A stretch of 64,000 nucleotides of DNA from an uncultured Gemmatimonadaceae bacterium (GCA_963781585.1 CAWAGQ010000013.1:256001-320000), one strand, 5' to 3'; shown: positions 42,820-60,821, counted from the stretch's first letter. Notes: generated by a model from the sequence alone, not told the origin. Translations and numbers: made by a program.

Positions 42820-43005
42820 GGCGGGACCTCGGGGGCACGAGCCGAGAGAAGATGCGGTATCCCGAAAATGTACGACGTGAAGGGGTGCCGGGCGAGGCGG
42901 AGGGGGGCCGGTGCGCGCGCGTGCCACCCGGTGACGAGGTGCGTGAATGCTGGTGGTGGGAGTCGAGGCGGGTGCGTAGACCGCGGGCCGTCTGGTGACC
43001 TCTCA

Positions 43006-43410
43006 ATGCAGCCGAATCCGAAACTCCTGCGCTCGTGGCGTGCGAAATTGTGCGTTGGGGATTTCAGCCGGCGGACGGAGGAGTCGTACGTGAGCTGGGG
43101 TGCGTCGCTTCATCGAACGCAATCAGCTCCGCCACCCGCAAGACATGAGGGAACGCGAAGTCGTGCAGTTTCTGACCTTCCTTGCCGTCGAGCGCACACT
43201 CGCTGCCGCCACCCAGGCCCAGGCAGTTGCGGCGCTCCAGTTCCTGTAACCCTGCGCCATTCCTTTGCGACGCATTTGCTTGGAGGCAGGCCATGACATC
43301 CGAACGGTACCGGAGCGATTGGGGCGTCGTGACGTATCGACGACGATGATCTACACGCGCGTGCTGAATCGCGTTCGGTCGGGTGTTCGCAGCCCGGTGG
43401 ACCGCGTATT
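43006..43410 (+). pseudogene. intI: Integron integrase remnant with frameshifts and a large internal deletion
   Basis: KLL...FSRRTEESYVSW/VRRFI...RHPQDM...EVVQFLTFLAVER...TQAQAVAALQFL joined directly to [20 protein letters not shown]...[14 protein letters not shown]...GVRSPVD, which are IntI-type N- and C-termini. Confidence 0.85.
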
Positions 43411-43423
43411 CGGGCCCGCAGGG

Positions 43424-43452
43424 TTGTCGGATTCGGCTGCGCTCCGTATGGT
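43424..43452 (+). promoter_or_regulatory. Candidate cassette promoter (Pc-like)
   Basis: TTGTCG-N17-TATGGT upstream of the attI-like core. Confidence 0.3.
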
Positions 43453-43489
43453 GGGCGCTGGTTGGGGTGTTGGGAGGGGAATGGGAAGA

Positions 43490-43514
43490 GGGGTTCAATA
43501 CTTGTTAGACGCCT
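43490..43514 (+). other. attI-like site; core GTTAGAC at 43504
   Basis: GTTRRRY core about 100 bp 3' of intI; GTTAGACGCCT is the reverse complement of 51508-51518. Confidence 0.65.
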
Positions 43515-43549
43515 ACAATCATCGCGGCGGAGCAAACCCTGGAGATCCG

Positions 43550-44053
43550 ATGGCGTATCGTAACAAGGTGTTTGTCTCATTCGACGGCGACTCGGATATC
43601 CACTACTACCGGCTCATGCGCGCGTGGAAGCAGAACGACCGCACGGACTTCGACTTCGTCGATGCTCATGATCTGACCCAAGCTCGCGATACGAGCACTG
43701 AAGACTCGATCAAGCGCAGCCTGTTGCAGCGGCTCGCGAACACCAAAGTCTTCGTATCTCTTATCGGGGAGAAGACGAAGTACCTCTATAAGTTTGTCCG
43801 ATGGGAGCTCGAGCAGGCAATTCGCCTCGATGTCCCGATCATCGGCGTAAACCTGAACGGCCGGCGCTCGCAGGACGCCGACCGATGCCCGCCACTTCTG
43901 CGCGACCAACTCGCCGTCTACGTCACGTTTAACCCTGCGATCATCCAGTACGCCCTCGAGCACTGGCCAACCGAGTGGCAAACCCTTCGACGCGAAGGCA
44001 AGACTGGCGCGCGGTACTATACGGACAGCGTGTATTCACGGCTCGGCCTGTAG
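43550..44053 (+). CDS. thsB: Thoeris ThsB TIR-domain protein
   Basis: [25 protein letters not shown]...DAHDL...[13 protein letters not shown]...LIGEKTK...FVRWELEQA (catalytic Glu). Confidence 0.85.
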
Positions 44054-44065
44054 CCGCCACGGCGC

Positions 44066-44992
44066 ATGTTGAGCACCTCTATTGCCGCTGTCCGGCACAT
44101 CTCGGTCGTCAAGTTGGGCGAGTCGATCCTCGAGGCGCTGGGCGTTCTATGGCTCATTCTCGAGATCACGGCTTACTTTTCCACCCAGTCGTCCGCGGTC
44201 ATCAGGCCGTACTGGTGGCTGTTTCTGATCGGGGGCGTTGGAGCAGGCCTCGTCCGCGCTTGGCCTCGACTCGCGGCTTCAGAGATTGTCGAGGGATCGG
44301 ACTGCACCATCGAGATCCGAGTGTGCGATATCCTCTCTCTTCGACACGTCGCACTGGTTGTCGGAACGAACGACACTTTCGATACCGCGCTTTCTGATGG
44401 CACGATTAGCAGCGAGAGCGTTCAGGGTCAGGCGACACTCCGCTTGCTTGCATCTCCGGAACAGCTGAATCGAGAACTCGACCATTCACTCGCTGGAACG
44501 GCGGCCACCGAGTTGTCTTACGATGACAAACCCTTCGGCAACTTAAAGCGATACCCAATTGGGACCGTGGCGAGTGTGGATGCTGGTACGCGGCGCATAT
44601 ACTTCGCCGCCATCGCCTCGCTCAACGCGCACCGCGTGGCCCACACAACCCGCCGGGATATCGCCGATGCGCTACCCCGGATTTGGGAACACATCCGCGA
44701 GCGAGGAGGGCTACACCCCCTGGCGTGTCCCGTGCTCGGATCGGGCTACTCACGATTGGACGCTACACGCGAGGAGCTCATTCGGGAGATCATCCGGTCA
44801 TTCGTGCCGGCAGTGAGGGCTGGAATGTTCTGCCGCGGACTGACGATCGCGGTTAGTCCCCGAGACTTTCGTGATGGACGCGTGAGTCTCACCGCGCTCG
44901 GGAGCTTCCTCGCGCACGAGTGCAAGTACGGAAGCGCGGGGCTGAGCCGGGACGTGGGCGGGCCACTCGGAACACCTCAAGGTTCAGCCTGA
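44066..44992 (+). CDS. thsA: Thoeris type II ThsA: two N-terminal TM helices + Macro domain
   Basis: Two hydrophobic helices, then IEIRVCDIL...VVGTNDTFDT...ISSESVQGQ...YPIGTVA...PVLGSGYSRL; directly follows the TIR gene. Confidence 0.8.
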   Translation: MLSTSIAAVRHISVVKLGESILEALGVLWLILEITAYFSTQSSAVIRPYWWLFLIGGVGAGLVRAWPRLAASEIVEGSDCTIEIRVCDILSLRHVALVVGTNDTFDTALSDGTISSESVQGQATLRLLASPEQLNRELDHSLAGTAATELSYDDKPFGNLKRYPIGTVASVDAGTRRIYFAAIASLNAHRVAHTTRRDIADALPRIWEHIRERGGLHPLACPVLGSGYSRLDATREELIREIIRSFVPAVRAGMFCRGLTIAVSPRDFRDGRVSLTALGSFLAHECKYGSAGLSRDVGGPLGTPQGSA

Positions 44993-47900
44993 TGCCTCGG
45001 ATCTTCGACAACATCCACGATGATCTGCTTCCTGCCCTGCGCGCCATGCTGGAGGTCGCGAATCGTTCCGACTTCAGCGTTGGCTATTTCAACCTCCGCG
45101 GATGGAAGACCCTCGATGATCTCGTCGAGCGGTGGCCGGGAGGTGGGGGCAACCAGTGCCGGCTTCTGGTCGGAATGCAGCGACTCCCGCAGGATGAGCT
45201 CCGCGCGGCCCTGAGTGTCGCTGCCCCGGGGCACGATGAACTCGACAACCAAACTGCGCAGCGACTCAAGAAGAAGCTTGCCGAGGAGTTTCGCAATCAA
45301 CTGACCTTCGGTGTCCCGTCCAATGCAGACGAAGCAGGGCTGCGGCGTCTTGCCGGGCAACTCAGGGCCGGCAAGGTTGTCGTCAAACTGTTCCTCCGGC
45401 ACGCGCTGCACGCCAAGCTGTACCTGCTCTTCCGCACGGACCCCGTCAATCCGATCGTCGGTTACCTGGGCAGCAGCAACTTGACGCTGTCCGGCCTCTC
45501 GCATCAAGGTGAGCTGAACATCGACGTCCTCGATCACGATGCCGCCACGAAACTGGCGAACTGGTTTGAGGACCGCTGGAACGACCGCTGGTGTGTCGAC
45601 ATCACCGAGGAGCTGATCCAGGTCATCGGCGAAAGCTGGGCGCGCGAGGAGGCACTGGCGCCGTACCACATCTACGTGAAGATGGCCTACCATCTTGCGC
45701 AGGAAGCCCGCGCCGGCCTCGCTGAGTTCCGCATCCCTCCAGAGTTCGGGAATCGGCTCTTCGACTATCAGGTTGCTGCCGTCAAGATCGCCGCACACCA
45801 TCTAAACAAGCGCGGCGGCGTGCTGATCGGCGATGTCGTGGGTCTCGGCAAGACGTTGATGGCATCTGCCTTGGCCAAGATCTTCCAGGACGATCACTTC
45901 ACCGAAACCCTGATTATCTGCCCCAAGAATCTCGTGAAGATGTGGGAGGACTACGTCTCCGAGTACCGATTGCTCGCAAAGGTCCTCTCAGTCACCCGCG
46001 CCGCTCGCGAGCTCCCGGAGCTTCGGCGCTATCGCGTGGTGCTCATCGACGAGAGCCAGAACCTCCGCAATCGCGAGGGCAAGCGCTACCGCGCCATTCA
46101 GGAGTACATACAGGAGAACGAAAGCAAATGCATCCTGTTGTCCGCGACGCCCTATAACAAGACCTACCTCGACCTCTCGAGCCAGTTGCGCCTGTTCGTT
46201 GCCGAAGACAAGGACATGGGGATTCGCCCGGAGCGTCTTCTCCGTGAGCTGGGTGAGACCGAGTTCATCCGACGTCACCAGTCACCGGTACGCTCGCTTG
46301 CCGCGTTCGAGAAGAGCGAATATGCCGATGATTGGCGCGAATTGATGCGTTTGTACATGGTGCGCCGGACGCGGAGCTTCATCCAGGACAACTACGCCGC
46401 AACCGATCCGGCAAATGGGCGCAAGTTCCTGACCTTCGAAGACGGCACGCGATCGTACTTTCCTGACCGAATACCCAAGACAGTCAAGTTCCGCATTGAC
46501 GAGAAGAGTCCTTCCGATCAGTACGCGCGGCTTTTCGCCCCTGACGTTGTCGTCGCGATCAACGGGCTTAGCCTGCCCCGGTATGGACTTGCGAACTACG
46601 TGGCCGCCACGCCACACAAGGCACCCACGACAGCGGAGGCAAAGCAGTTGCAGGATCTGTCGCGCGCAGGCAAGCGCCTCATGGGCTTCTGCCGCACCAA
46701 CCTCTTCAAGAGGCTCGAAAGCAGTGGCGATGCTTTCGGACAGTCCATCGAACGACACGTTCTGCGCAACTACATCGTCCTGCACGCCATCGAACACGCC
46801 TTGCCCCTGCCGCTGGGAACGCAGGATACAGGCCTCCTTGACGCTGGCAACTATGACGAAGATGTCGACGACGAGGCTGCGACAGCCGAACTGTTCGAGG
46901 ACGAGAACGGCGATGGTGTGACCGCCCCGCCGCGTGCCGCGCTGCGCAGCGTCGAAGATTTCAAGAAGCGAGCGGCGGAACTCTACGAATCCTACGCGAC
47001 TCAATTCAAGCGGCGCTTCAAGTGGCTCCGGCCGGACTTGTTCGTCAAGTCACTCGCAACCGATCTTGAGGCGGATGCCGTGAGCTTGCTCGAGGTCCGC
47101 ACACGCTGCGGCCAGTGGGACCCGTCAAAGGATGCCAAACTCGATGCGCTCTATAACCTTTTGGAGAAGCGCCACCCCCGCGAGAAGGTACTCATATTCA
47201 CCCAGTTCGCAGACACAGTCCGTTACCTCGAGGCGCAGCTTCGCGCACGCGGAGTCAAGCGGCTCGCTGGCGTCACCGGAGAGGACGAGGACCCCACGAG
47301 CTACGCCTGGCGCTTCAGCCCGGACAGCAACAAGAAACGCAAGCGCCTGCGGCCCGATGAAGAGCTACGTGTTCTGCTCGCGACCGATGTCCTCAGCGAA
47401 GGCCAGAACCTTCAGGACGGGGCCATCATCGTCAACTTCGACCTCCCTTGGGCCATCATCAGGCTCGTTCAGCGGGCAGGTCGCGTCGATCGCATTGGGC
47501 AGAAATCGGAGAAGATCCTTTGCTATTCTTTCCTGCCGGCTGATGGCGTCGAGAACCTGATCCGCCTGCGCGCGCGGGTGCGCCAGCGGCTGCACGAGAA
47601 CGCCGAGGTTGTTGGCACGGACGAAGCTTTCTTTGAGAACGAGAGAGAGCGCCAGAAGCTCCTCGACCTTTACCACGAGAAGTCAGGCATTCTCGATGGG
47701 GAAGCGGAGACCGAAGTGGACCTCGCTTCATACGCCTACCAGATCTGGAAGAACGCCATTGACCGTGATCCAGACCTGCGGAAGTCAATTCCGGCGCTCC
47801 CGCCGGTGGTCTTCTCGACTCGTCCACACGAAAGCACCGAGCGGAAGCCGCATGGCGCCCTCGTCTACCTTCGGACTGCCGAAGGCAATGACGCGCTCGC

Positions 47901-48387
47901 GTGGGTCGACAAGGCCGGCAACAACGTCACCGAGTCCCAGTTCGAGATCCTGAAGGCGGCGGAGTGCACACCCGATACCCGCGCGTTACCCCGCCAAGCA
48001 GATCATCATGACCTCGTACGGAAGGCGGTTGACTTTGTCGTGTCCGAGGAGAAATCGGTCGGCGGCCAGCTGGGCCGCCCATCCGGTGCCCGGTTCCGTA
48101 CTTACGAGCGCCTTAAACGCTACGCCGAGCAGGTCAAAGGCACGCTATTCCAGTCGCCCGAGCTCGCGAAGGCCATCGAAGAGATCTACCGCTTTCCACT
48201 TCGGCAATCGGCCACCGACACCCTGAATCGCCAGCTGCGAGCTGGGATCTCGGACGATAAGCTGGCCGAGCTGGTGATGGCGCTCCGCGACGACGATCGG
48301 CTGTGCTTGGTCCACGAGGAAGAGCACTCCGCCGAGCCCCAGATCATCTGCTCCCTCGGCCTGGCCCCGGCCGAGAGCGGGAGCTGA
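44992..48387 (+). CDS. PLD (HKD) nuclease - SNF2-like helicase fusion
   Basis: SVGYF, LHAKLYL, GSSNLT (PLD); GDVVGLGKT, IDESQN, LSATP, SEGQNLQ, QRAGRVDRIGQ (helicase); ATG overlaps thsA TGA. Confidence 0.9.
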   Translation: MPRIFDNIHDDLLPALRAMLEVANRSDFSVGYFNLRGWKTLDDLVERWPGGGGNQCRLLVGMQRLPQDELRAALSVAAPGHDELDNQTAQRLKKKLAEEFRNQLTFGVPSNADEAGLRRLAGQLRAGKVVVKLFLRHALHAKLYLLFRTDPVNPIVGYLGSSNLTLSGLSHQGELNIDVLDHDAATKLANWFEDRWNDRWCVDITEELIQVIGESWAREEALAPYHIYVKMAYHLAQEARAGLAEFRIPPEFGNRLFDYQVAAVKIAAHHLNKRGGVLIGDVVGLGKTLMASALAKIFQDDHFTETLIICPKNLVKMWEDYVSEYRLLAKVLSVTRAARELPELRRYRVVLIDESQNLRNREGKRYRAIQEYIQENESKCILLSATPYNKTYLDLSSQLRLFVAEDKDMGIRPERLLRELGETEFIRRHQSPVRSLAAFEKSEYADDWRELMRLYMVRRTRSFIQDNYAATDPANGRKFLTFEDGTRSYFPDRIPKTVKFRIDEKSPSDQYARLFAPDVVVAINGLSLPRYGLANYVAATPHKAPTTAEAKQLQDLSRAGKRLMGFCRTNLFKRLESSGDAFGQSIERHVLRNYIVLHAIEHALPLPLGTQDTGLLDAGNYDEDVDDEAATAELFEDENGDGVTAPPRAALRSVEDFKKRAAELYESYATQFKRRFKWLRPDLFVKSLATDLEADAVSLLEVRTRCGQWDPSKDAKLDALYNLLEKRHPREKVLIFTQFADTVRYLEAQLRARGVKRLAGVTGEDEDPTSYAWRFSPDSNKKRKRLRPDEELRVLLATDVLSEGQNLQDGAIIVNFDLPWAIIRLVQRAGRVDRIGQKSEKILCYSFLPADGVENLIRLRARVRQRLHENAEVVGTDEAFFENERERQKLLDLYHEKSGILDGEAETEVDLASYAYQIWKNAIDRDPDLRKSIPALPPVVFSTRPHESTERKPHGALVYLRTAEGNDALAWVDKAGNNVTESQFEILKAAECTPDTRALPRQADHHDLVRKAVDFVVSEEKSVGGQLGRPSGARFRTYERLKRYAEQVKGTLFQSPELAKAIEEIYRFPLRQSATDTLNRQLRAGISDDKLAELVMALRDDDRLCLVHEEEHSAEPQIICSLGLAPAESGS

Positions 48388-48396
48388 GGTGTGCCG

Positions 48397-51393
48397 ATGG
48401 CTCTGAACGCTGCGCGCGCTCGGGAACGTCTCGCCAAGGGTGACCTGCGCGCTCTGTTTATCGAAGAACTCGGATGGGATCGTCATACGGCAACCCTGAG
48501 GGTAACCGTGGACGGCTCAACGCTCGATCTACACGCGCTCGCTCAGAAGCGCGGCATGGTCGCCTACCATTGCCCCGCGCCTGCGGGCCAGCCCCTGCCT
48601 GATTACAGCCACCGCCGCAAGATCGAGCATCAAGTCGCCAAGTCAGCACACGAGCACCTCATCATTTTCACCGACCCGGGCAACCAGACTCAGGTCTGGC
48701 AGTGGGTGAAACGAGAACTCGGAAAGCCGACCGCGTGTCGGGAGCATGCCTACCACCGCTCCCAGCCCGGTGACGCACTGCTCCAGAAGTTGAACGCCAT
48801 TGCGTTCACGCTAGAAGAGGAGGATCGGCTTTCTCTTCCGGACGTCACTCGGCGTGCTCGTGCCGGGTTCGATGTCGAGAGGGTTACCAAGCGCTTCTAC
48901 GACCGCTTCCAGAAGGAGCACGGAGCCTTTCTCAAGTTCATCACCGGCATTACCCAGAGCACCGACCGCGAGTGGTACGCCTCGGTCATGTTGAACCGGT
49001 TGATGTTCGTCTACTTCGTGCAGCGCAAGGGTTTCCTCGACGGCGACCGCCACTACCTCCGCAACCGGCTCGCGCGCATGCGCGCCGAGCATGGCAAGGA
49101 CAAGTTCTACTCCTTCTACCGGTACTTCCTCCTCCGCCTCTTTCATGAGGGGCTCGGCGGCAAGGCGCGCACGCGCGAGCTCGAGGCGCTCGTCGGTCAC
49201 ATCCCGTACCTGAACGGTGGCCTCTTCGACGTCCACGAGCTGGAGAAATCGGATCGCTACGGCAAGACCATCCGGATCCCCGACTCGGCGTTCGAACGCA
49301 TCTTCGACTACTTCGATCAGTACCAGTGGCACCTGGACGAGCGGCCGCTCCGCGCCGACAACGAGATCAACCCAGACGTACTGGGCTACATCTTCGAGAA
49401 GTACATCAACCAGAAACAGATGGGGGCGTACTACACGAAGGAGGACATCACCGAGTACATCAGCAAGAACACTGTGCTGCCGTACCTCTTCGATTCCGCG
49501 CGCACCAAATGCAGAGTTGCGTTCGAGAATGCTAAAGGCCCCACGGTCTGGGACCTGCTGAAGTCCGACCCCGACCGGTACATCTACTCTGCCGTTCGCC
49601 ACGGCGCCGGGGAACCGCTGCCGGCGGACATCTCCGCTGGGCTGAATCCACCGACTTTGCACAAAGCGGTGGGCGACGGCCCCGTCATGACCCTTGAGCT
49701 CAGGAAGGGCTGGAACAGGCCGGCACCCGCGACGCACGCGCTCCCGACGGAGACATGGCGTGAGGTAATCGCGCGCCGGACGCGTTATGAGGAGATCAAG
49801 AAGGGGCTCGCTGCTGGCGAGGTGAGGGACATCAACGACCTCATTACCCTCAACCTCGACATTCGCCAGTTCGCCCAGGATGCCATCGAGAACTGCGAAG
49901 GCCCGGACCTCCTTCGTGCCTTCTGGCATGCCATCGAGAAGGTGACCATCCTCGACCCGACGTGCGGGTCGGGCGCGTTCCTCTTCGCGGCCCTGAATAT
50001 CCTCGAACCGCTGTACGAGGCCTGCCTGGACCGGATGGAGGCCTTCGTTGACGATCTCGCTCGGTCGGGAGAGAAGCATCGCCCGGAAAAGTATTCCGAC
50101 TTCCGGAAGGTGCTGGATCGCATCGCGGCCCATCCCAATCGCCGTTACTTCATCTTCAAGAGCATCATCCTCAACAACCTCTTCGGCGTGGACATCATGG
50201 AAGAGGCGGTGGAGATCTGTAAGCTCCGCCTCTTCCTTAAGCTTGCGGCGCAGGTGGAGCCGGACTCCGCGCGCGACAACCTCGGCATTGAGCCTTTGCC
50301 GGATATCGATTTCAACATTCGCGCCGGCAACACGCTCGTCGGCTACGCGACGCTTGATGCCGTGAAAGAGGCACTCGGCAGCAAGCTCGACTTCGACAAC
50401 GCGGCCGACAAGATCGCGGTTAAGGCCGCAGATCTCCAGCAGGTCTTCGACGCATTCCGGGCGCGGCAGGTGGAGGGCGACGGTTCTGTTCCGGCGGAGC
50501 ACAAGCAGGAGCTCCGCAAGCGTCTGAGCGCCCTGGATGAGGAACTCAACCGTCACCTTGCGAATGAGTACGGCGTCGAGTGGACGAAGAAAGACGCCTA
50601 CACCAAGTGGCTGAAGTCCCATCAGCCATTCCACTGGTTCGTCGAATTCTACGGGATCATGAGCGGTGGCGGGTTCGACGTGATAATTGGGAACCCGCCG
50701 TATCTGGAGTACTCCAAGGTTGCCGAGTATTCAGTCCGCGGGTACGCGACTGAGCGATGCTCGAATCTCTACGTGTATACGGTCGAGAGGTCGCTCGCTC
50801 TGAACGGCCCCCGTGGGAGCTTGGGGATGATCATCCCAATCTCAGCCGCATGTTCCGGCGCCATGCAGCCGCTCCGTGACCACCTCACGCAGCGGGCCGG
50901 ATCGCTCTGGCTCTCTCATTTTTCAAACCGCCCGGGTCAGCTGTTCAATGGAGCCCAGAACCGTCTGACGATACTTGTCGCCTCGAGACGGCGTGGAGAC
51001 CGAAAGGTCTTCTCCACTCGATACCATAGATGGGACGCCAGAAATGGCGAACGAGACAGCCTGTTTCCCGTCTTGCGTTACCTCGAGACAGGCGAGGAGG
51101 CGCCCATGTTTCATGGGCTTCTCCCCAAGATTGGTACTCCCGAAGCAGCCGCTGTGCTGAAGAAGATCAGATGTGCCAAGACGGTCGCGTTCTTCACCAC
51201 AAGGCGCGGCAAGTACAAGCTCTTCTGGGTGCGCGTGCCCGGCTATTTCTGTGTCTTTCTTCCCGGCCGCTTGCCGCGCGGCTTTCAAGGCAGGCCGGAT
51301 CCTGTTCTTGTCCCCGTTCACCAAGCATCCGAGGCGTGTCACGAAGGAGTCTGCCCTCCGGCGCAACGAGGTGGTCGCCGCGCTCGCAGATGA
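48397..51393 (+). CDS. Eco57I/type IIG-like N6-adenine DNA methyltransferase, C-terminus probably truncated near 51255
   Basis: PYLNGGLF, LGYIFE, GAYYT, LDPTCGSGAF (motif I), IIGNPPY (motif IV); the tail after RVPGYFC looks out of frame. Confidence 0.85.
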   Translation: MALNAARARERLAKGDLRALFIEELGWDRHTATLRVTVDGSTLDLHALAQKRGMVAYHCPAPAGQPLPDYSHRRKIEHQVAKSAHEHLIIFTDPGNQTQVWQWVKRELGKPTACREHAYHRSQPGDALLQKLNAIAFTLEEEDRLSLPDVTRRARAGFDVERVTKRFYDRFQKEHGAFLKFITGITQSTDREWYASVMLNRLMFVYFVQRKGFLDGDRHYLRNRLARMRAEHGKDKFYSFYRYFLLRLFHEGLGGKARTRELEALVGHIPYLNGGLFDVHELEKSDRYGKTIRIPDSAFERIFDYFDQYQWHLDERPLRADNEINPDVLGYIFEKYINQKQMGAYYTKEDITEYISKNTVLPYLFDSARTKCRVAFENAKGPTVWDLLKSDPDRYIYSAVRHGAGEPLPADISAGLNPPTLHKAVGDGPVMTLELRKGWNRPAPATHALPTETWREVIARRTRYEEIKKGLAAGEVRDINDLITLNLDIRQFAQDAIENCEGPDLLRAFWHAIEKVTILDPTCGSGAFLFAALNILEPLYEACLDRMEAFVDDLARSGEKHRPEKYSDFRKVLDRIAAHPNRRYFIFKSIILNNLFGVDIMEEAVEICKLRLFLKLAAQVEPDSARDNLGIEPLPDIDFNIRAGNTLVGYATLDAVKEALGSKLDFDNAADKIAVKAADLQQVFDAFRARQVEGDGSVPAEHKQELRKRLSALDEELNRHLANEYGVEWTKKDAYTKWLKSHQPFHWFVEFYGIMSGGGFDVIIGNPPYLEYSKVAEYSVRGYATERCSNLYVYTVERSLALNGPRGSLGMIIPISAACSGAMQPLRDHLTQRAGSLWLSHFSNRPGQLFNGAQNRLTILVASRRRGDRKVFSTRYHRWDARNGERDSLFPVLRYLETGEEAPMFHGLLPKIGTPEAAAVLKKIRCAKTVAFFTTRRGKYKLFWVRVPGYFCVFLPGRLPRGFQGRPDPVLVPVHQASEACHEGVCPPAQRGGRRARR

Positions 51394-51478
51394 GGCGTAC
51401 GTCGCGCACGTCGCAAGCGGCGGGAAGACAGACCAGATCGTGAAGAAGCTGGCGGAGTGGAAGGTGCCGCTTCTGTGA
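51255..51478 (+). pseudogene. 3' remnant of a DprA/Smf (SLOG)-like gene
   Basis: AGRILFLSPF...RRVTKESALRRNEVVAALADEAYVAHVASGGKT resembles the DprA-like C-terminal RN..VAALAD motif; no N-terminus. Confidence 0.6.
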
Positions 51479-51511
51479 AGACGTCGCGCATTGGAGCCGT
51501 CGAGGGCAGGC

Positions 51512-51569
51512 GTCTAACGAAGTAAAGATTCGTGCCGCGCGATAGCCGCGGCACAATCTGGGGTTGAAC
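51512..51569 (+). other. attC site 1
   Basis: R'' GTCTAAC, stem AGATT(C)GTGCCGCG/CGCGGCACAATCT with an extrahelical base, R' GTTGAAC. Confidence 0.8.
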
Positions 51570-51782
51570 TCAGTCCGCCCCGCGGCAGGGCCTTGGAGTT
51601 TCAGGCGGGTGCGTGACCCGAGGCGACGTCCAGGACGCCCAGCGAAGCGAGCGTCAGGCGGCCTGCCGAGCCCAGACCGGGGGCCGCGCACCGGACCAGC
51701 CGCGCGCGATTGAGGCCGGCGCAGCGTTGGCCGTGCGCTCCGGCGATCATGGGGCGCGGCTTCGCCGGACCACGCGCGCGGA

Positions 51783-52952
51783 TCATGCGGCGACTGTGGC
51801 AGTCGGTGGGGTGGAGCACGGCGAGGACCACGAGTCCGGCGGCGCGCGCGATCGGGTGAAGTGGTCGATGACCACGAGGCGACCGCGCCGACAGACCGGG
51901 CAGCAGGGGTCCGGCGCGGTTGGTGGCTGGTCGTGCGCGACCGGAGTCTGCGCCGGGATGTTGCTCGCGGACTTCGGGACGCCGTCGCGAGCGTGAAGCT
52001 CGAGGAGATCGCGGGCCCGTTCCAGCTGCGTGCGGCGGCCGGGGCTCAGGAGACCATAGGAGCGGACCTTGGTGAAGCCTCGGGGGAGGACGTGCTGGAG
52101 GAAACGGCCGATGAAGGTGTTCACCGGCAGCGTCAGGCGCCGGGTCTCCCCGGTGCGTGCGTGGGTATAGCGGAAGGTGACGCGATCATTGCTGAAGCGT
52201 TCGATGCGGTGGTTGGTGAGGGCGACGCGGTAGATGTAGCGGGAGAGATAGAGTGCGGCGTGCTGCCCGGTGCCGATGGCCTTGACGTGGACCGTCCAGC
52301 GGTGGGTCCACACGCCGGGATCGACCTCGCCGGCGAGGCCGGCTCGTGCGAACGCGTCGCGCATCTTCGCCCGGAAGATCGGGGAGAGCATGTAGCCCGG
52401 GACGAGGAAACGAGAATGAGCGGGCTTGATCCAGGCCGTGCCGTCCGCGCCGAGGCCGCCGGCGCTGACGAGGAGGTGGACGTGGGGATGGTGCTCCAGG
52501 GTGCGCGACCAGGTGTGGAGTACGGCGAGGATGGCGGGAGTGCCGCCCACCCAGTTCGGGTCCTTACAGAGCGTGAGGACAGTGGCAGCTGCTTCGCGTA
52601 GAAGGGCGGCGTATACCAGGCGCTGGTGCGATCGGGCGACGGACCGCAGCCCCTGTGGGAGGGTGAACGTGAGGAGGTAGTGGCCGGTGTGGAGAAGCCG
52701 CTGCCGGACTCGCTCCAACCATCTCTGGGCCCGATCGTCCTGGCACGTGGGACAGTGGCGGTTGCGGCAGGAGTGGTAGCGGTACGCGAGGGCAGCGCAC
52801 TCGTCGCAGCGGTAGAGCGAGCCACCGAGGGCCGGTGTGCGACACTGGACGATGTCGTTCATGGCCCTCCGGTGGGAGGGCAGGAGCGGTCCGGCGTGGG
52901 TCCGCAGATACTCGGGCCCCGCCCTGCGGAGGATGTCCGCGAGCTCCACCAC
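51783..52952 (-). CDS. IS91-family (Y2) rolling-circle transposase with Zn-binding domain
   Basis: CRTPALGG...CDEC...HSCRNRHCPTC; LHTW...HPHVH (HUH); YLSRYIYR (YxxxY); RFLQHVLPRGF. Confidence 0.92.
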   Translation of the reverse strand: MVELADILRRAGPEYLRTHAGPLLPSHRRAMNDIVQCRTPALGGSLYRCDECAALAYRYHSCRNRHCPTCQDDRAQRWLERVRQRLLHTGHYLLTFTLPQGLRSVARSHQRLVYAALLREAAATVLTLCKDPNWVGGTPAILAVLHTWSRTLEHHPHVHLLVSAGGLGADGTAWIKPAHSRFLVPGYMLSPIFRAKMRDAFARAGLAGEVDPGVWTHRWTVHVKAIGTGQHAALYLSRYIYRVALTNHRIERFSNDRVTFRYTHARTGETRRLTLPVNTFIGRFLQHVLPRGFTKVRSYGLLSPGRRTQLERARDLLELHARDGVPKSASNIPAQTPVAHDQPPTAPDPCCPVCRRGRLVVIDHFTRSRAPPDSWSSPCSTPPTATVAA

Positions 52953-52999
52953 GGCCCGTCTCGGGGGCAGTGGCTGTCTGAACCGACGGGCCTAACGAC

Positions 53000-53872
53000 T
53001 CAAGAGCGACGCGCCATGAGATCGTTGATCGGACTCAGCGCGGCGTCGTGGAGCTCCCGGGTGAGGTGGGTGTAGATGGCGGTTGTTCTGGGACTGGTGT
53101 GGCCCAGATACTCCTGGATCAATCGCAGATTGACACCGGCCTCCAGCAGGTGCGTGGCGTAGCTGTGCCGGAGCGTGTGGACGTGCGCGCGCTTGTGGAT
53201 ACCGCTGGCCCTGACAGCACGGACGAAGGCGCTCTGAAGGCTGGCGCGGGAGATGGGGCCCACGGCCGGGTCGCTCAGGACGCCGGCATGGGATCGGGTG
53301 ATCGTGGGGAAGAGCCAGAGGGGATTACGGTGCGTCCGCCAGTGCTCTCGCAACAGCGCGAGGGTGGCGTCCGGGAGCGGGACGTAGCGATCCTTGCGGC
53401 GCTTGCCGTGAATGTGGAGCAGCTTCCGGGCACCATCGACATCGGGGACCTGGAGGCGGGCGCCCTCCAAGAGGCGGAGGCCGCAGGCGTAGATGGTCGT
53501 CAGGCAGACGCGGTAGACGGGAAGTCGAAGATGATCCAGGATTTGCCAGACCTCGCCGCGGCTCAGGACGACCGGGAGCTTCTTCTCCCCCTTGGGCCGG
53601 GCCACCTTGAGGACCATCCACTCGCGCCCAAGCGTGTGCTGGTAGAAGAACTTGAGGCCGCAGAGGGCGATGGTGTGGGTGCCCCGGGCGACCTTCTGAA
53701 CGGTGGTGAGGTGAAGGAGGTAGTCGCGGAGCTGCTCTTCCGTGAGGGTGTCGGGTGAGGCATGATAGAAGCGGGCCAGCTGAGCGACGGAGCGGACGTA
53801 GGCTTCGACGGTGCGATCGGAGTAGCCGCGGAGCTGGAGATCCTGGATCATGCGTTGGCGGAGCGGTGTCAT
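53000..53872 (-). CDS. Tyrosine recombinase (phage-integrase family, SAM-like N-terminus)
   Basis: MTPLRQRMIQDLQLRGYSDRT; GLRLLE, HTLRHSYATHLLE, LGH...TTAIY (R-H-R-H-Y intact). Confidence 0.92.
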   Translation of the reverse strand: MTPLRQRMIQDLQLRGYSDRTVEAYVRSVAQLARFYHASPDTLTEEQLRDYLLHLTTVQKVARGTHTIALCGLKFFYQHTLGREWMVLKVARPKGEKKLPVVLSRGEVWQILDHLRLPVYRVCLTTIYACGLRLLEGARLQVPDVDGARKLLHIHGKRRKDRYVPLPDATLALLREHWRTHRNPLWLFPTITRSHAGVLSDPAVGPISRASLQSAFVRAVRASGIHKRAHVHTLRHSYATHLLEAGVNLRLIQEYLGHTSPRTTAIYTHLTRELHDAALSPINDLMARRS

Positions 53873-53991
53873 GGTGTCCTCGCTGAAGGGGTTCAGCGTG
53901 AACATTGGACATCACTCCGCCAACTTCATCAGCCACGGTGGAGTAAGGGCACGCACCGAAATCGCAGTGCTAGACGCCGAAGGCGGATTGA

Positions 53992-54085
53992 GTTCAACCA
54001 CGCGTTGCAGCCGACGCGGGCGCCATGGTGGCGGCTTCGCCGCTTTGATTGGACTGCCCGCGCAGCTGAACGCTAGGCGTTAGGC
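53992..54085 (+). other. attC site 2
   Basis: GTTCAAC-CACGCGTTGCAGCCGACGCGGGC...GCCCGCGCAGCTGAACGCTAGGC-GTTAGGC imperfect hairpin. Confidence 0.85.
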
Positions 54086-54098
54086 GGAGCTTCAAGTC

Positions 54099-54593
54099 AT
54101 GAGCACTTCAGAGCTGGACACTCAGTCTGCAGCGGAGCGACGATCGGCGGAAGCCCGGTTGCGGGCGCTTATCGCCAAGTGCGTTCCCGCGCACCAACGG
54201 CTCACCGGCGCATTGCGACGATGGCTGCGAAAGCGCCTGCCCACCGCCCATGAGGTGGTCTATGAGTATTCTGACTGCCTCGTCATCAGCTATTCACCGA
54301 ACGAGCGCGGGTATGACGGGGTCCTTGCCATCCGCGCGAGCGCCGACGGAGTCAAGCTGTACCTCAATCGTGGCACGGGATTGCCGGATCCTGAGAAACT
54401 GTTGCGGGGGTCCGGCAAACAGACGCGCTGGATTCCCGTGGAGGGCGCATCCACACTCGCTCGCTCGGCGGTCGTGGACGTGATCGACAGAGCCATCGCT
54501 CGAAGTCGCGTCCCGTTTGGGCGCACCGGCCTTGGGTTGGTGGTCATTCGTTCGGAAGTGGCCAAGGCGCGTGGGCGGCGTCGCCCCGCCTAA
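54099..54593 (+). CDS. DUF1801/YdhG-like cassette protein
   Basis: LRKRLPTAHEVVYEY...LPDPEKLLRGSGKQTRWI; its stop lies in a degenerate R'' GCCTAAA (54588) matching the cassette start GTTAGGCGG. Confidence 0.65.
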   Translation: MSTSELDTQSAAERRSAEARLRALIAKCVPAHQRLTGALRRWLRKRLPTAHEVVYEYSDCLVISYSPNERGYDGVLAIRASADGVKLYLNRGTGLPDPEKLLRGSGKQTRWIPVEGASTLARSAVVDVIDRAIARSRVPFGRTGLGLVVIRSEVAKARGRRRPA

Positions 54594-54653: not shown

Positions 54654-55618
54654 GTGAGGCACGCACACATCGCGTTCATGGTTGCTGCAGCAGCCGTGCT
54701 GCAAGGGCAGCAACCGCAGCTGCCGCCGGCGCCTGGCAAACTGGTGGATATTGGAGGTAGGCGACTCCACGTCATGTGCAGCGGCTCCGGCTCACCCACG
54801 GTCGTCCTCGAGGCGGGCGCCTCGTCTTTCGCGATCGACTGGACGCTGGTGCAACGGTCGGTGGCTCGCACCGCGTGTCTGTTCCTACGACCGCGGTGGT
54901 ATGGGATGGAGTGATCCGTCTTCGGGTACCTTCATCGACGCCGCAAGAAGACCTCCACAAGCTGCTGGCGGCAGTTTCGGAGCACCCTCCATTCATCCTC
55001 GTCGGGGCCTCACGAGGTGGACTCTTTATCCGTGCGTTTCAGGCCGACTATCCGTCGGAAGTCGCCGGGTTGGTATTTGTCGACCCGTCGACTGAAGACC
55101 GCCTATTCACCGTCTTTGAAGGTCACGACGTGTTGATCGCATCGCTGACCGCCCAGCAGCTTCGCTCGACACTTCCGACAGCACCGGTCGTGGTCCCGCG
55201 CCGGCAACCGCAGACCGGCGCGCCCTTCGACCGCCTGCCGCCGCAGCTCCATCGAACTCGCGTGCTGCTTGACGAACGGCTCATTGCCTCATACCCAGAT
55301 ACCGTCACACCAGAGGTTGTCGCCGCCTTCTCCGAGAGCGAACGAGCGCTCTTGGCGCGCCTCCGAGCGCTTCGTGCTCCGACGCGACACCCGCTCGGCA
55401 GCCTTCCCACGGTCGTTCTGACGCGGGGCAATCCGAGAAACAACGAACGCGAGGCGGCGCATCGTTCCCTGGCCTGTCTCTCGACGGATTCACGCCACAC
55501 CATCGTCGCCGGCGCCGGCCACGAGATCCATCTGTTCAAACCGAACGCCGTCGTTCAGGCAATCGAGGACGTGATCGAAGCCGTTCGTTACAATGCGCCC
55601 CTGCGAACGCTGCGTTAA
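54654..55618 (+). pseudogene. Alpha/beta hydrolase, two frameshifts
   Basis: GKLVDIGGRRLH...PTVVLEAG / RVCSYDRGGMGWSD / ILVGASRGG...GAGHEIH are split across three frames. Confidence 0.75.
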
Positions 55619-56368: not shown

Positions 56369-56381
56369 CGGCCCTCGTGAC

Positions 56382-56496
56382 GTCTGACAACGCGTTGCAG
56401 CCGGCAGGAACGCAAACGGTAGGTGACACAATCCCCTCCGCGAAACACAGCGTTGATGCCATCCGACCCCTGACGGGCGAATAGTCGCGTTTAGAC
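56382..56496 (+). other. Degenerate attC
   Basis: GTCTGAC-AACGCGTTGCAGCCGGCAGG...GTTTAGAC; its left part matches attC2. Confidence 0.5.
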
Positions 56497-57273: not shown

Positions 57274-57357
57274 GGATAACCAGGCATGGCAGCGGATGAT
57301 TGGACTTCCTCGCTTCGCTCGCGCGGCCACTCGCCGCTGAATGCCACAACGTTAGGC
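57274..57357 (+). other. attC site
   Basis: GGATAAC-CAGGCATGGCAGCGGATGA...TCGCCGCTGAATGCCACAAC-GTTAGGC. Confidence 0.7.
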
Positions 57358-60527: not shown

Positions 60528-60732
60528 GCGACAGGTCGTTAGGCTGCGGTAACAATCCTACGCACATGGCAATTGCAGGCGTCCGCCGCCTATGCGGCGA
60601 ATTCGGGCCAGTTTCTGAAGAACACATTTCCCCCGAAGGGAGGCTTCTGTTCGTTGCAGTCGCGATTGACTCATTCGACTGGCGTCAGCAGTCGCGGGGG
60701 ATACTGTGCCCTTGACCGTTAGGCTTTGGGAG

Positions 60733-60821
60733 GAAACGTTACAGCCGACAAGCCGCACACGAGCGTAGTTGGACTTCCAGGTTCAGCCCGCGGCTTGCGG
60801 GTGAACGTCAAGCCGTTAGGC
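60733..60821 (+). other. attC with degenerate R''
   Basis: ACGTTACAGCCGACAAGCCGC...GCGGCTTGCGGGTGAACGT-CAAGCC-GTTAGGC. Confidence 0.65.

Follow-up and report, generated by a model that had tools for sequence, protein, structure and literature searches.

The window examined here is a stretch of 64,000 nucleotides from an uncultured Gemmatimonadaceae bacterium (contig C13, positions 256001-320000, of a 5.7-Mb genome with 67% guanine plus cytosine (GC) in 17 contigs). In it, the remnant of an integron integrase gene and its attI site are followed by a block of about 8 kb with five reading frames, made up of a type II Thoeris pair, thsB-thsA, and a helicase-methylase-SLOG module. The block is probably an oversized composite cassette in the attI-proximal position of a decayed integron, that is, a Thoeris cassette with an inserted operon that later underwent a deletion and received an insertion sequence (IS). 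Directly observed are the ends of the unit, the genes that it contains, the IS and the deletion, as well as the fact that the two modules are distributed separately. Given the exact 11-nt inverted pair at its ends, the attI junction and the abutting frames, the block is best read as one cassette of about 8 kb. Its parts, counted from the first letter of the window, are the following.

43440-43510, plus strand: attI-like region ending in the core GTTAGAC, recognized by homology to the sequence downstream of an intact intI on contig C7 of the same genome
43505-51518, plus strand: cassette body, running from the first base (TTAGACGCCT...) through the last base of R'' (...AGGCGTCTAAC), marked by the 11-nt pair, a low GC content (0.60-0.62 across 43-51 kb, compared with 0.66-0.73 in the adjoining bins and 0.67 in the genome) and no credible internal attC
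43550-44053, plus strand: thsB, a TIR-domain protein of 167 aa (Pfam ThsB_TIR, PADLOC ThsB1)
44066-44992, plus strand: thsA of type II Thoeris, 308 aa, full length, with two N-terminal hydrophobic helices followed by a Macro domain
44992-48387, plus strand: SNF2 helicase with a PLD (HKD-like) domain, 1131 aa, apparently intact (Pfam PLDc_2, SNF2-rel_dom and Helicase_C)
48391-51393, plus strand: Eco57I-type N6-adenine methylase, truncated (PADLOC REase_MTase_IIG, PDLC03628)
51236-51478, plus strand: 3' remnant of a DprA/SLOG-like gene, about 80 codons (PADLOC PsyrA, 2.3e-5, and alignment to relatives)
51508-51518, plus strand: R'' box of the cassette's attC (GTCTAAC) with four further complementary bases; all copies of the IS have different sequences before ..CTAAC and the same sequence after it

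The sequence GTTAGACGCCT at 43504-43514 has its exact reverse complement, AGGCGTCTAAC, at 51508-51518, with all 11 nt complementary. A preliminary description of this DNA had already drawn attention to this pair, and it proves to be exact. The 11-mer occurs exactly twice in the window, once on each strand, a number reached by none of 100 dinucleotide shuffles (mean 0.00), and the two positions are also its only occurrences in the whole 5.7-Mb genome. Because a control, the same 11-mer read backwards, likewise gives 2 matches genome-wide, the count as such is unremarkable and only the placement of the two copies is telling. The 7-mer GTCTAAC is found in the window at these two places only, with 2.09 occurrences expected by chance.

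On the left side, alignment of the window with contig C7 reveals homology through the 3' end of intI and about 100 nt beyond, including GTTAGAC (43504-43510), after which the sequences diverge. Since the homology to the C7 attI stops at this core, 43504|43505, the G|TT crossover point of attI, marks the junction between attI and cassette. On the right side, the comparison with two cassettes on C7, upstream of the other two copies of the IS, is instructive. The start of cassette B, GTTAGGCAGCG, pairs over 11 nt with its R'' region, CGCTGCCTAAC, and the left end of cassette C pairs with its R'' over 9 nt, so that three cassettes, including the one in the window, have an R'' box that pairs with their own left end. 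As the R'' box and the four bases before it thus match the beginning of the same cassette in B and C too, the idea that an attC was split upon integration, as the preliminary description had proposed, is sound for R''. This R'' with its four preceding bases is part of the upstream cassette and not of the IS.

Within the block, there is no intergenic room for an attC: thsB stops at 44053 and thsA starts at 44066, which leaves 12 nt; the TGA of thsA (44990-92) and the ATG of the helicase gene (44992-94) overlap by one A in TGATG (44990-44994); and the methylase gene starts 3 or 9 nt after the helicase stop at 48387, depending on whether GTG at 48391 or ATG at 48397 is used. Home-made strict and relaxed attC scans of 43515-51500 agree with this arrangement. 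The strict scan gave no match on the plus strand and one weak match on the minus strand (50544-50679, inside the methylase gene), and the relaxed scan gave only weak structures in methylase coding sequence that lack R-box complementarity. The same scans recover 51512-51569 and 53992-54085, and the relaxed scan finds 57274-57357 on the opposite strand only. In both respects, the close packing of the genes and the lack of a credible internal attC, the preliminary description is upheld, as it is for the kinds of genes that it had recognized. The last 72 nt of thsA (44920-44992) were considered as a possible attC relic, which was ruled out because this stretch is coding and conserved in homologues. 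An alignment with MAFFT of 11 natural attC sites from the window, C7 and metagenome loci (168 columns) was structurally inconsistent.

Directly behind the R'' box the sequence is of a different nature, and it is at this point that the proposal of a single cassette with a split attC has to be amended. The attI junction and the pairing of R'' stand; the body of the supposed attC, from 51519 onwards, belongs to an IS with the following parts.

51519-53998, minus strand: IS91-family element with an IntI-like recombinase, 2.48 kb, defined by profile matches and by three identical copies with different flanks
51519-51562: terminal hairpin of the IS, inside the inserted element
51562-51579 and 53982-53999: 18-nt inverted repeats of the IS
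51783-52952: transposase gene of the IS (Y2 HUH)
53000-53905: recombinase gene of the IS (IntI-like)
53999-54085, plus strand: what remains of an attC of the type found in the local array (L''...L', spacer, R' GTTAGGC), with the crossover at 54079|54080

The transposase matches the NCBIfam model IS91 NF033538 with 353.1 bits (cut-off 125) and the Pfam families Y2_Tnp and Zn_Tnp_IS91. The recombinase, which shares 35% identity with the IntI of C7 and does not have the IntI-specific insertion, has its best match in the integron integrase model, where its 201.5 bits fall short of the cut-off of 265. A search of the own genome with 51480-54100 revealed three copies that are 100% identical over 51514-54088 and 51509-54001, the other two lying at G000:C7:172170-174744 and C7:182856-185348. 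At least three related genomes, G001, G016 and G014, contain the IS as well. From GAAGTAAAG... to ...GAGTTCAAC, comprising the hairpin, the IS91 transposase gene and the recombinase gene, the three copies are identical, and the sequence to the left of ..CTAAC differs among them, with the R'' boxes GTCTAAC, GCCTAAC and GTCTAAC. In all five cases seen (the window, the copies at cassettes B and C on C7, G001 and G016), the left junction lies directly after the AAC of a G(T/C)CTAAC R'' box. The identical unit behind different R'' boxes and genes therefore indicates that 51519-53998 is a mobile element inserted after the AAC of R''. On the other side, the flank after ..GTTCAAC differs in copy C, G001 and G014, where other attC bodies follow. 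The 44-nt hairpin core is identical at three places in the genome and in G001, near-identical in G016, and always joined to the IS.

It follows that the cassette does not have one contiguous attC of the form R''-L''...L'-R', as 2.48 kb of IS comes directly after R''. The segment beyond the IS, 53999-54085, shares ACGCGTTGCAGCCG with 56389-56402 in the array. If the IS is removed by coordinates, R'' joined to 53999-54079 and to the first ten bases of the cassette folds into an attC-like structure on the bottom strand (-37.5 kcal/mol, z -6.6). The element could also be seen as an ordinary cassette (51564-54079) with an attC of its own (GTTCAAC...). This possibility is disfavoured; the 18-nt inverted repeat fits both views, but the hairpin 51519-51562 always travels with the IS, and copy C and G001 have other attC bodies, which favours an element opened at R''. 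A later excision of that cassette-like piece by IntI is a possible explanation for the identity of 53999-54085 in two of the copies.

The two modules of the block have quite different distributions. ThsB matches Pfam ThsB_TIR (PF08937) with 1.6e-17 and 64.2 bits (cut-off 21.2), and PADLOC ThsB1 over its full length with 1.7e-76. ThsA matches Pfam ThsA_Macro (PF20016) over residues 82-263 with 7.5e-43 and 146.8 bits (cut-off 25), and PADLOC ThsA with 5.6e-46; its hydrophobic windows at residues 12-40 and 45-63 are defined by hydropathy only (Kyte-Doolittle >1.4). Relatives of ThsB were collected from 30 metagenome loci (43-72% identity; 19 of them at 57-72% over the full length), and thsA adjoins in 21 of the 30. 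A metagenome scan with ThsA itself gave 215 pattern matches, none of which was confirmed as a relative. In 12 of the 30 loci the alignments of ThsA homologues extend to residue 302-308 of 308. There are 8 attC-like matches in the 0.117 Mb of these loci. In four of them (L096-L099) an attC begins 13-15 nt past the thsA stop, and in five (L096-L100) the preceding attC ends in GTTATGC 31-40 nt upstream of thsB; elsewhere, therefore, thsB-thsA is an ordinary two-gene cassette of about 1.5 kb. In the window the pair begins 39 nt after the attI junction and has its own GGAG, like the cassettes from metagenomes.

The helicase retains the motifs GLGKT, DESQ and H-x-K...GSSN, and its best PADLOC model is C3a139 'HKD+Snf2' (5.8e-46). 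Its relatives (582 confirmed stretches, from which 77 loci were kept) are 66-85% identical over the full length and stem from many phyla. The loci, L012-L088, are spread over Nitrospirota, Planctomycetota, Alpha- and Gammaproteobacteria, Clostridia, Verrucomicrobiota and Acidobacteriota, with one metagenome-assembled genome of Bathyarchaeia (L064). For a three-gene system this is a very wide horizontal spread. The methylase gene adjoins the helicase gene in 72 of the 77 loci and a DprA/SLOG-like gene lies downstream of the methylase gene in 25. ThsA, ThsB and IntI were found in none of them, more than 1.5 kb of upstream sequence being present in 56. Over the 1.17 Mb of the helicase loci the strict scan gave no attC-like match and the relaxed scan 7, none of which is located at the end of the module.

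The window is homologous to these relatives from the helicase ATG to the SLOG stop. As thsA is full length and the usual start codon of the helicase gene is retained, the 6.5-kb module occupies precisely the space from the thsA stop to the 29-nt spacer that precedes the R'' 11-mer. A TGA is present at both module junctions, which might represent microhomology.

The module itself is no longer complete. The methylase matches PDLC03628 (7e-304) over profile positions 1-937 of 1100 and has kept NPPY and the S-adenosylmethionine-binding motif. Its homology to relatives of 1083 and 1126 aa stops near residue 950 (about 51250), so that the C-terminal 130-150 residues or so are gone, and the last 45 codons or so read the SLOG gene out of frame. 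The 101-aa SLOG frame has PADLOC PsyrA (DprA/SLOG-like) as its sole match, a weak one; its relatives, of 187 and 218 aa, match Pfam DNA_processg_A, and the gene in the window lacks the N-terminal residues, about 100 in number. Judging from these alignments, about 0.75 kb appears to be deleted across the C-terminus of the methylase and the N-terminus of the SLOG protein. Of the several layers of defence that the preliminary description had seen in the block, one is thus broken.

From these elements we infer an order of events and an activity of the systems. The scaffold would be a type II Thoeris two-gene cassette consisting of a leader, thsB, thsA, a short spacer and an attC. A foreign three-gene operon of 6.5 kb would have entered between the thsA stop and the spacer before R'', and it may have joined either before the cassette arrived or in place. 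Afterwards, the deletion of about 0.75 kb would have taken the C-terminus of the methylase and the N-terminus of the SLOG protein, and the attC-homing IS91/IntI-like element would have inserted at the AA|C of the cassette's R'' box. This insertion would have made two hairpins out of one attC, the first of which is the structure that had been taken for the first attC of the array. As to activity, the families concerned suggest that ThsB senses infection and makes a signal of the His-ADPR type, which would be bound by the Macro domain of ThsA, whereupon the two membrane helices would stop the cell. By the same kind of reasoning, the helicase/methylase pair would act as a modification-dependent restriction module, which is probably crippled here.

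Three other explanations have to be weighed. According to the first, and this is the form in which the preliminary description had put it, a ready-made five-gene island was captured and moved by IntI as one circle of 8 kb, and its own attC is the 62-nt site 51508-51569, split on integration. The exact 11-nt pair is in line with this. Moreover, the bottom strand of the chimeric site folds into a clean attC-like hairpin (-22.6 kcal/mol, z -7.1) with an R box of 11 bp, L boxes and a spacer that stays unpaired, one base being bulged out on the L'' arm, the canonical one. The composition of the genes is a further argument: third-position GC (GC3) is 0.69-0.81 in the five frames of the block, compared with 0.81-0.90 in four flanking core genes. 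The similar GC3 of the five frames fits a shared residence in an earlier host, which it favours weakly. The site itself speaks against this explanation, since 51519-51569 recurs as a repeat at C7:174.7 kb, C7:185.3 kb, in G001 and in G016, each time behind different genes and different R'' boxes, and with its 44-nt core always joined to the IS. In addition, the two modules are never linked elsewhere (0 of 77 helicase loci and 0 of 30 Thoeris loci), thsB-thsA pairs form ordinary cassettes, and a search of 40 relatives with an 8.3-kb query (43400-51700) did not find it as a block in any of them. Only 190 nt at the right end of this query were matched elsewhere at >85% identity, namely twice on C7 and in G001, G016 and G014. 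The mobilization of the whole island as one unit is thus not borne out, and we regard this course of events as unlikely.

In the second explanation, two or more neighbouring cassettes, one with Thoeris and one with the helicase, methylase and SLOG genes, were fused in place by the loss of the intervening attC. The homologous thsB-thsA pairs do have an attC right after thsA, which is missing here, and deletions do occur in the block. But the left end of a first cassette and the R'' box of a last one would not be expected to match over 11 nt. The helicase module is without cassette ends in 77 of 77 loci, and the thsA/helicase junction, a one-base overlap of two full-length genes, bears no visible trace of an attC. 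Such a fusion appears improbable to us. Equally improbable is the third explanation, in which the block is not a cassette at all but a defence island that reached its place next to a dead intI by another route. In its favour, the R-box consensus makes up 7 of the 11 nt, the C7 attI has GTTAGAC as its core too, and the 11-mer is genome-wide no commoner than its backwards control, so that consensus plus chance might account for the pair. Against it, the right copy lies exactly at the insertion point of an attC-homing IS that marks R'' in 5 of 5 junctions, the left copy is precisely where the homology to the C7 attI stops, two other cassettes have an extended pairing of end and R'', and the Thoeris pair resembles the metagenome cassettes in its start 39 nt after the junction and in its own GGAG.

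The composite cassette that we prefer has to face several observations that weigh against it. It is a single instance, in a decayed integron whose local intI is dead, and one of its modules is broken. In 40 relatives and four public runs, neither a second copy of the block nor an empty site or a circle junction was found, so that the designation as a cassette derives from structure. The four complementary bases beyond the R-box consensus would agree by chance with a probability of about 0.5% (an estimate from base composition), and the other cassettes in the array have degenerate R'' boxes that lack extended complementarity. The attC scans were home-made rather than based on the covariance model of IntegronFinder; they are crude, of limited sensitivity, and miss some attCs of the array, for instance the site ending at 60821. 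Finally, the sequence that follows the IS copy at C7:172 kb (C7:172170-172260) agrees with 53999-54085 at 100% identity, and a different one follows the third copy. The segment 53999-54085 may therefore represent what is left of the attC of this cassette, or it may move together with the IS, for instance through excision of 51564-54079 as a cassette by IntI.

The public data contribute little to these questions. Among the 20 runs listed there is no RNA run, and the best one holds 0.23 of the sampled words. Searching four of the runs with 43000-54500 yielded short contigs of low depth only, none of which bridges the attI junction, the thsA/helicase junction or 51518|51519. In one run, X2, a single contig of 195 nt with a depth of 2.6 fits 51208-51260 and then diverges from the window; it would fit an intact methylase gene in a near-identical relative. 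An apparent joint 51578>53975 in the same run was discarded, as one of its sides measures 24 nt and falls in the inverted repeats of the IS.

The integron in which the block resides is chromosomal, decayed and, as its intI reads towards the cassettes, of the 'inverted' type, a kind of integron-integrase mentioned in a passage of Cury et al. 2016 (PMC4889954). What is left of its integrase gene is the following.

43005-43439, plus strand: delta-intI remnant, identified from three-frame translations and alignment to the 3' end of the intact intI on C7

In this remnant, the N-terminal SAM-like part is joined to the C-terminal catalytic end, with the pieces frameshifted in two frames; the middle part, including the IntI-specific insertion, and the stop codon are lost. 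The stop is TAG in the C7 copy and TCG in the window. As a result of this loss, one open frame (43265-44053) runs from the C-terminus of the integrase across attI into thsB. A 24-nt inverted repeat, 88% complementary, connects the first codons of the remnant with the sequence just past its end (43008-43031 / 43417-43440). The paralogous integron on C7 encodes an intact IntI of 333 aa, a full-length match to TIGR02249 (434.7 bits, cut-off 265). At that second locus (G000:C7:185789-186860, L128), IntI also reads towards the cassettes, attI ends in GTTAGAC, and the first cassette, of about 440 bp, has the IS in its attC as well.

Downstream of the block, the array of the window has attC-like hairpins on the same strand that end in GTTAGGC at 54085, 57357, 58739 and 60821. 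It seems to be eroding: half an attC (GTCTGAC AAC GCGTTGCAGCCG...) at 56380-56402 is without its 3' arm, and an apparent alpha/beta-hydrolase cassette gene (54654-55618, assigned by eye) is frameshifted. At 60718-60821, two GTTAGGC cores lie 97 nt apart around one attC-like hairpin with no gene between them, which may be an empty cassette or a deletion scar.

If the composite nature of the block holds, it has consequences for the view of what integrons can carry. In surveys, integron defences appear 'streamlined' because cassettes must be small, and a well-bounded cassette of 8 kb with five frames is a counter-example. It also illustrates a route by which such units could originate, namely the entry of a foreign operon into an ordinary two-gene cassette, in the space between its stop codon and its attC. 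Very tentatively, the generalization could be ventured that integron cassettes can hold more than one or two small genes; that a small cassette can take up a foreign operon between its last stop and attC, the resulting two-system unit of about 8 kb staying a substrate of IntI; that integrons move and stockpile defence islands which escape finders based on a 4-kb rule; and that an attC-homing IS doubles the site and may reshuffle the units. We hold this general form to be a possibility rather than a probability.

Comparison with what is known puts the size of the unit in perspective. According to the part of Cury et al. that treats this point (PMC4889954), the largest known cassettes measure about 2 kb. 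Excision fell for very large synthetic cassettes in the experiments reported in a section of Loot et al. (PMC5371416), the largest inserts tested being about 3 kb. Our literature search for a larger cassette found no paper on the point. By type, defence systems in integrons never exceed two components, and long loci such as BREX and CRISPR-Cas are absent, in the summary given by Darracq et al. (10.1101/2024.07.02.601686). The sedentary chromosomal integrons covered in that account have anti-phage genes as cassettes in a chromosomal array, as is the case here, whereas the unit in the window has five reading frames and two systems. The same survey states that IntegronFinder was used, a program whose default attC clustering distance is given as 4 kb in its description (PMC4889954). 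A block of 8 kb with five frames is an outlier by comparison and exceeds this distance, so that the intI remnant would be separated from the array and the cassette missed, which constitutes a blind spot.

Two-gene cassettes containing ThsB, called BRiCs, are described for mobile integrons in the account of Kieffer et al. (10.1101/2024.07.02.601719). As far as that account goes, they share with the metagenome cassettes L096-L099 and with the scaffold proposed here the order of a ThsB-like TIR gene and an effector gene, with a short leader behind G|TT and with an attC that starts a few bases past the second stop. In contrast to both, unrelated genes take up 6.5 kb from the thsA stop to R'' in the window, whose cassette is about five times longer. 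The second gene of BRiCs is said there to be non-ThsA, whereas that of the window encodes a type II ThsA. With regard to the Thoeris system itself, an excerpt from Sabonis et al. on Bacillus amyloliquefaciens Y2 (10.1101/2024.01.03.573942) defines type II by a ThsA with a C-terminal Macro domain instead of SIR2-SLOG. In that account, ThsB makes histidine-ADP-ribose (His-ADPR) on infection, the Macro domain of ThsA binds the signal, and the membrane part with two helices stops the cell. The pair in the window has the same arrangement, a ThsB TIR protein together with a ThsA whose two transmembrane helices are N-terminal and whose Macro domain is C-terminal, the similarity being at the family level only.

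The helicase-methylase module resembles PADLOC type IIG (PDLC03628), DrmD-DrmMI of DISARM and PglX of BREX in combining an Eco57I-type N6-methylase with an SNF2 helicase that carries a PLD nuclease-like domain. It differs from DISARM and BREX in that all NCBIfam models stay far below their cut-offs (for example DrmD with 128.9 versus 610 and PglX with 67.5 versus 500), and from DISARM in that the block contains no further reading frame able to encode DrmA or DrmB. The conserved third partner of this helicase-methylase system is instead a DprA/SLOG-like protein.

As for the element that split the attC, a literature search at the level of titles and abstracts found no published description of an IS91-family element with an IntI-like recombinase that homes to attC. 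The split site in the window adds an example of IS91/IntI-like elements homing to attC sites. Elements with such a preference are known in two other groups, the IS1111-attC insertion sequences and the group IIC-attC introns. Like these, the insert 51519-53998 hits one fixed bond of attC in one orientation; in contrast to them, it belongs to the IS91 family (Y2 HUH) and encodes an IntI-like tyrosine recombinase, and it is thus neither a member of the IS110 family nor a retroelement.

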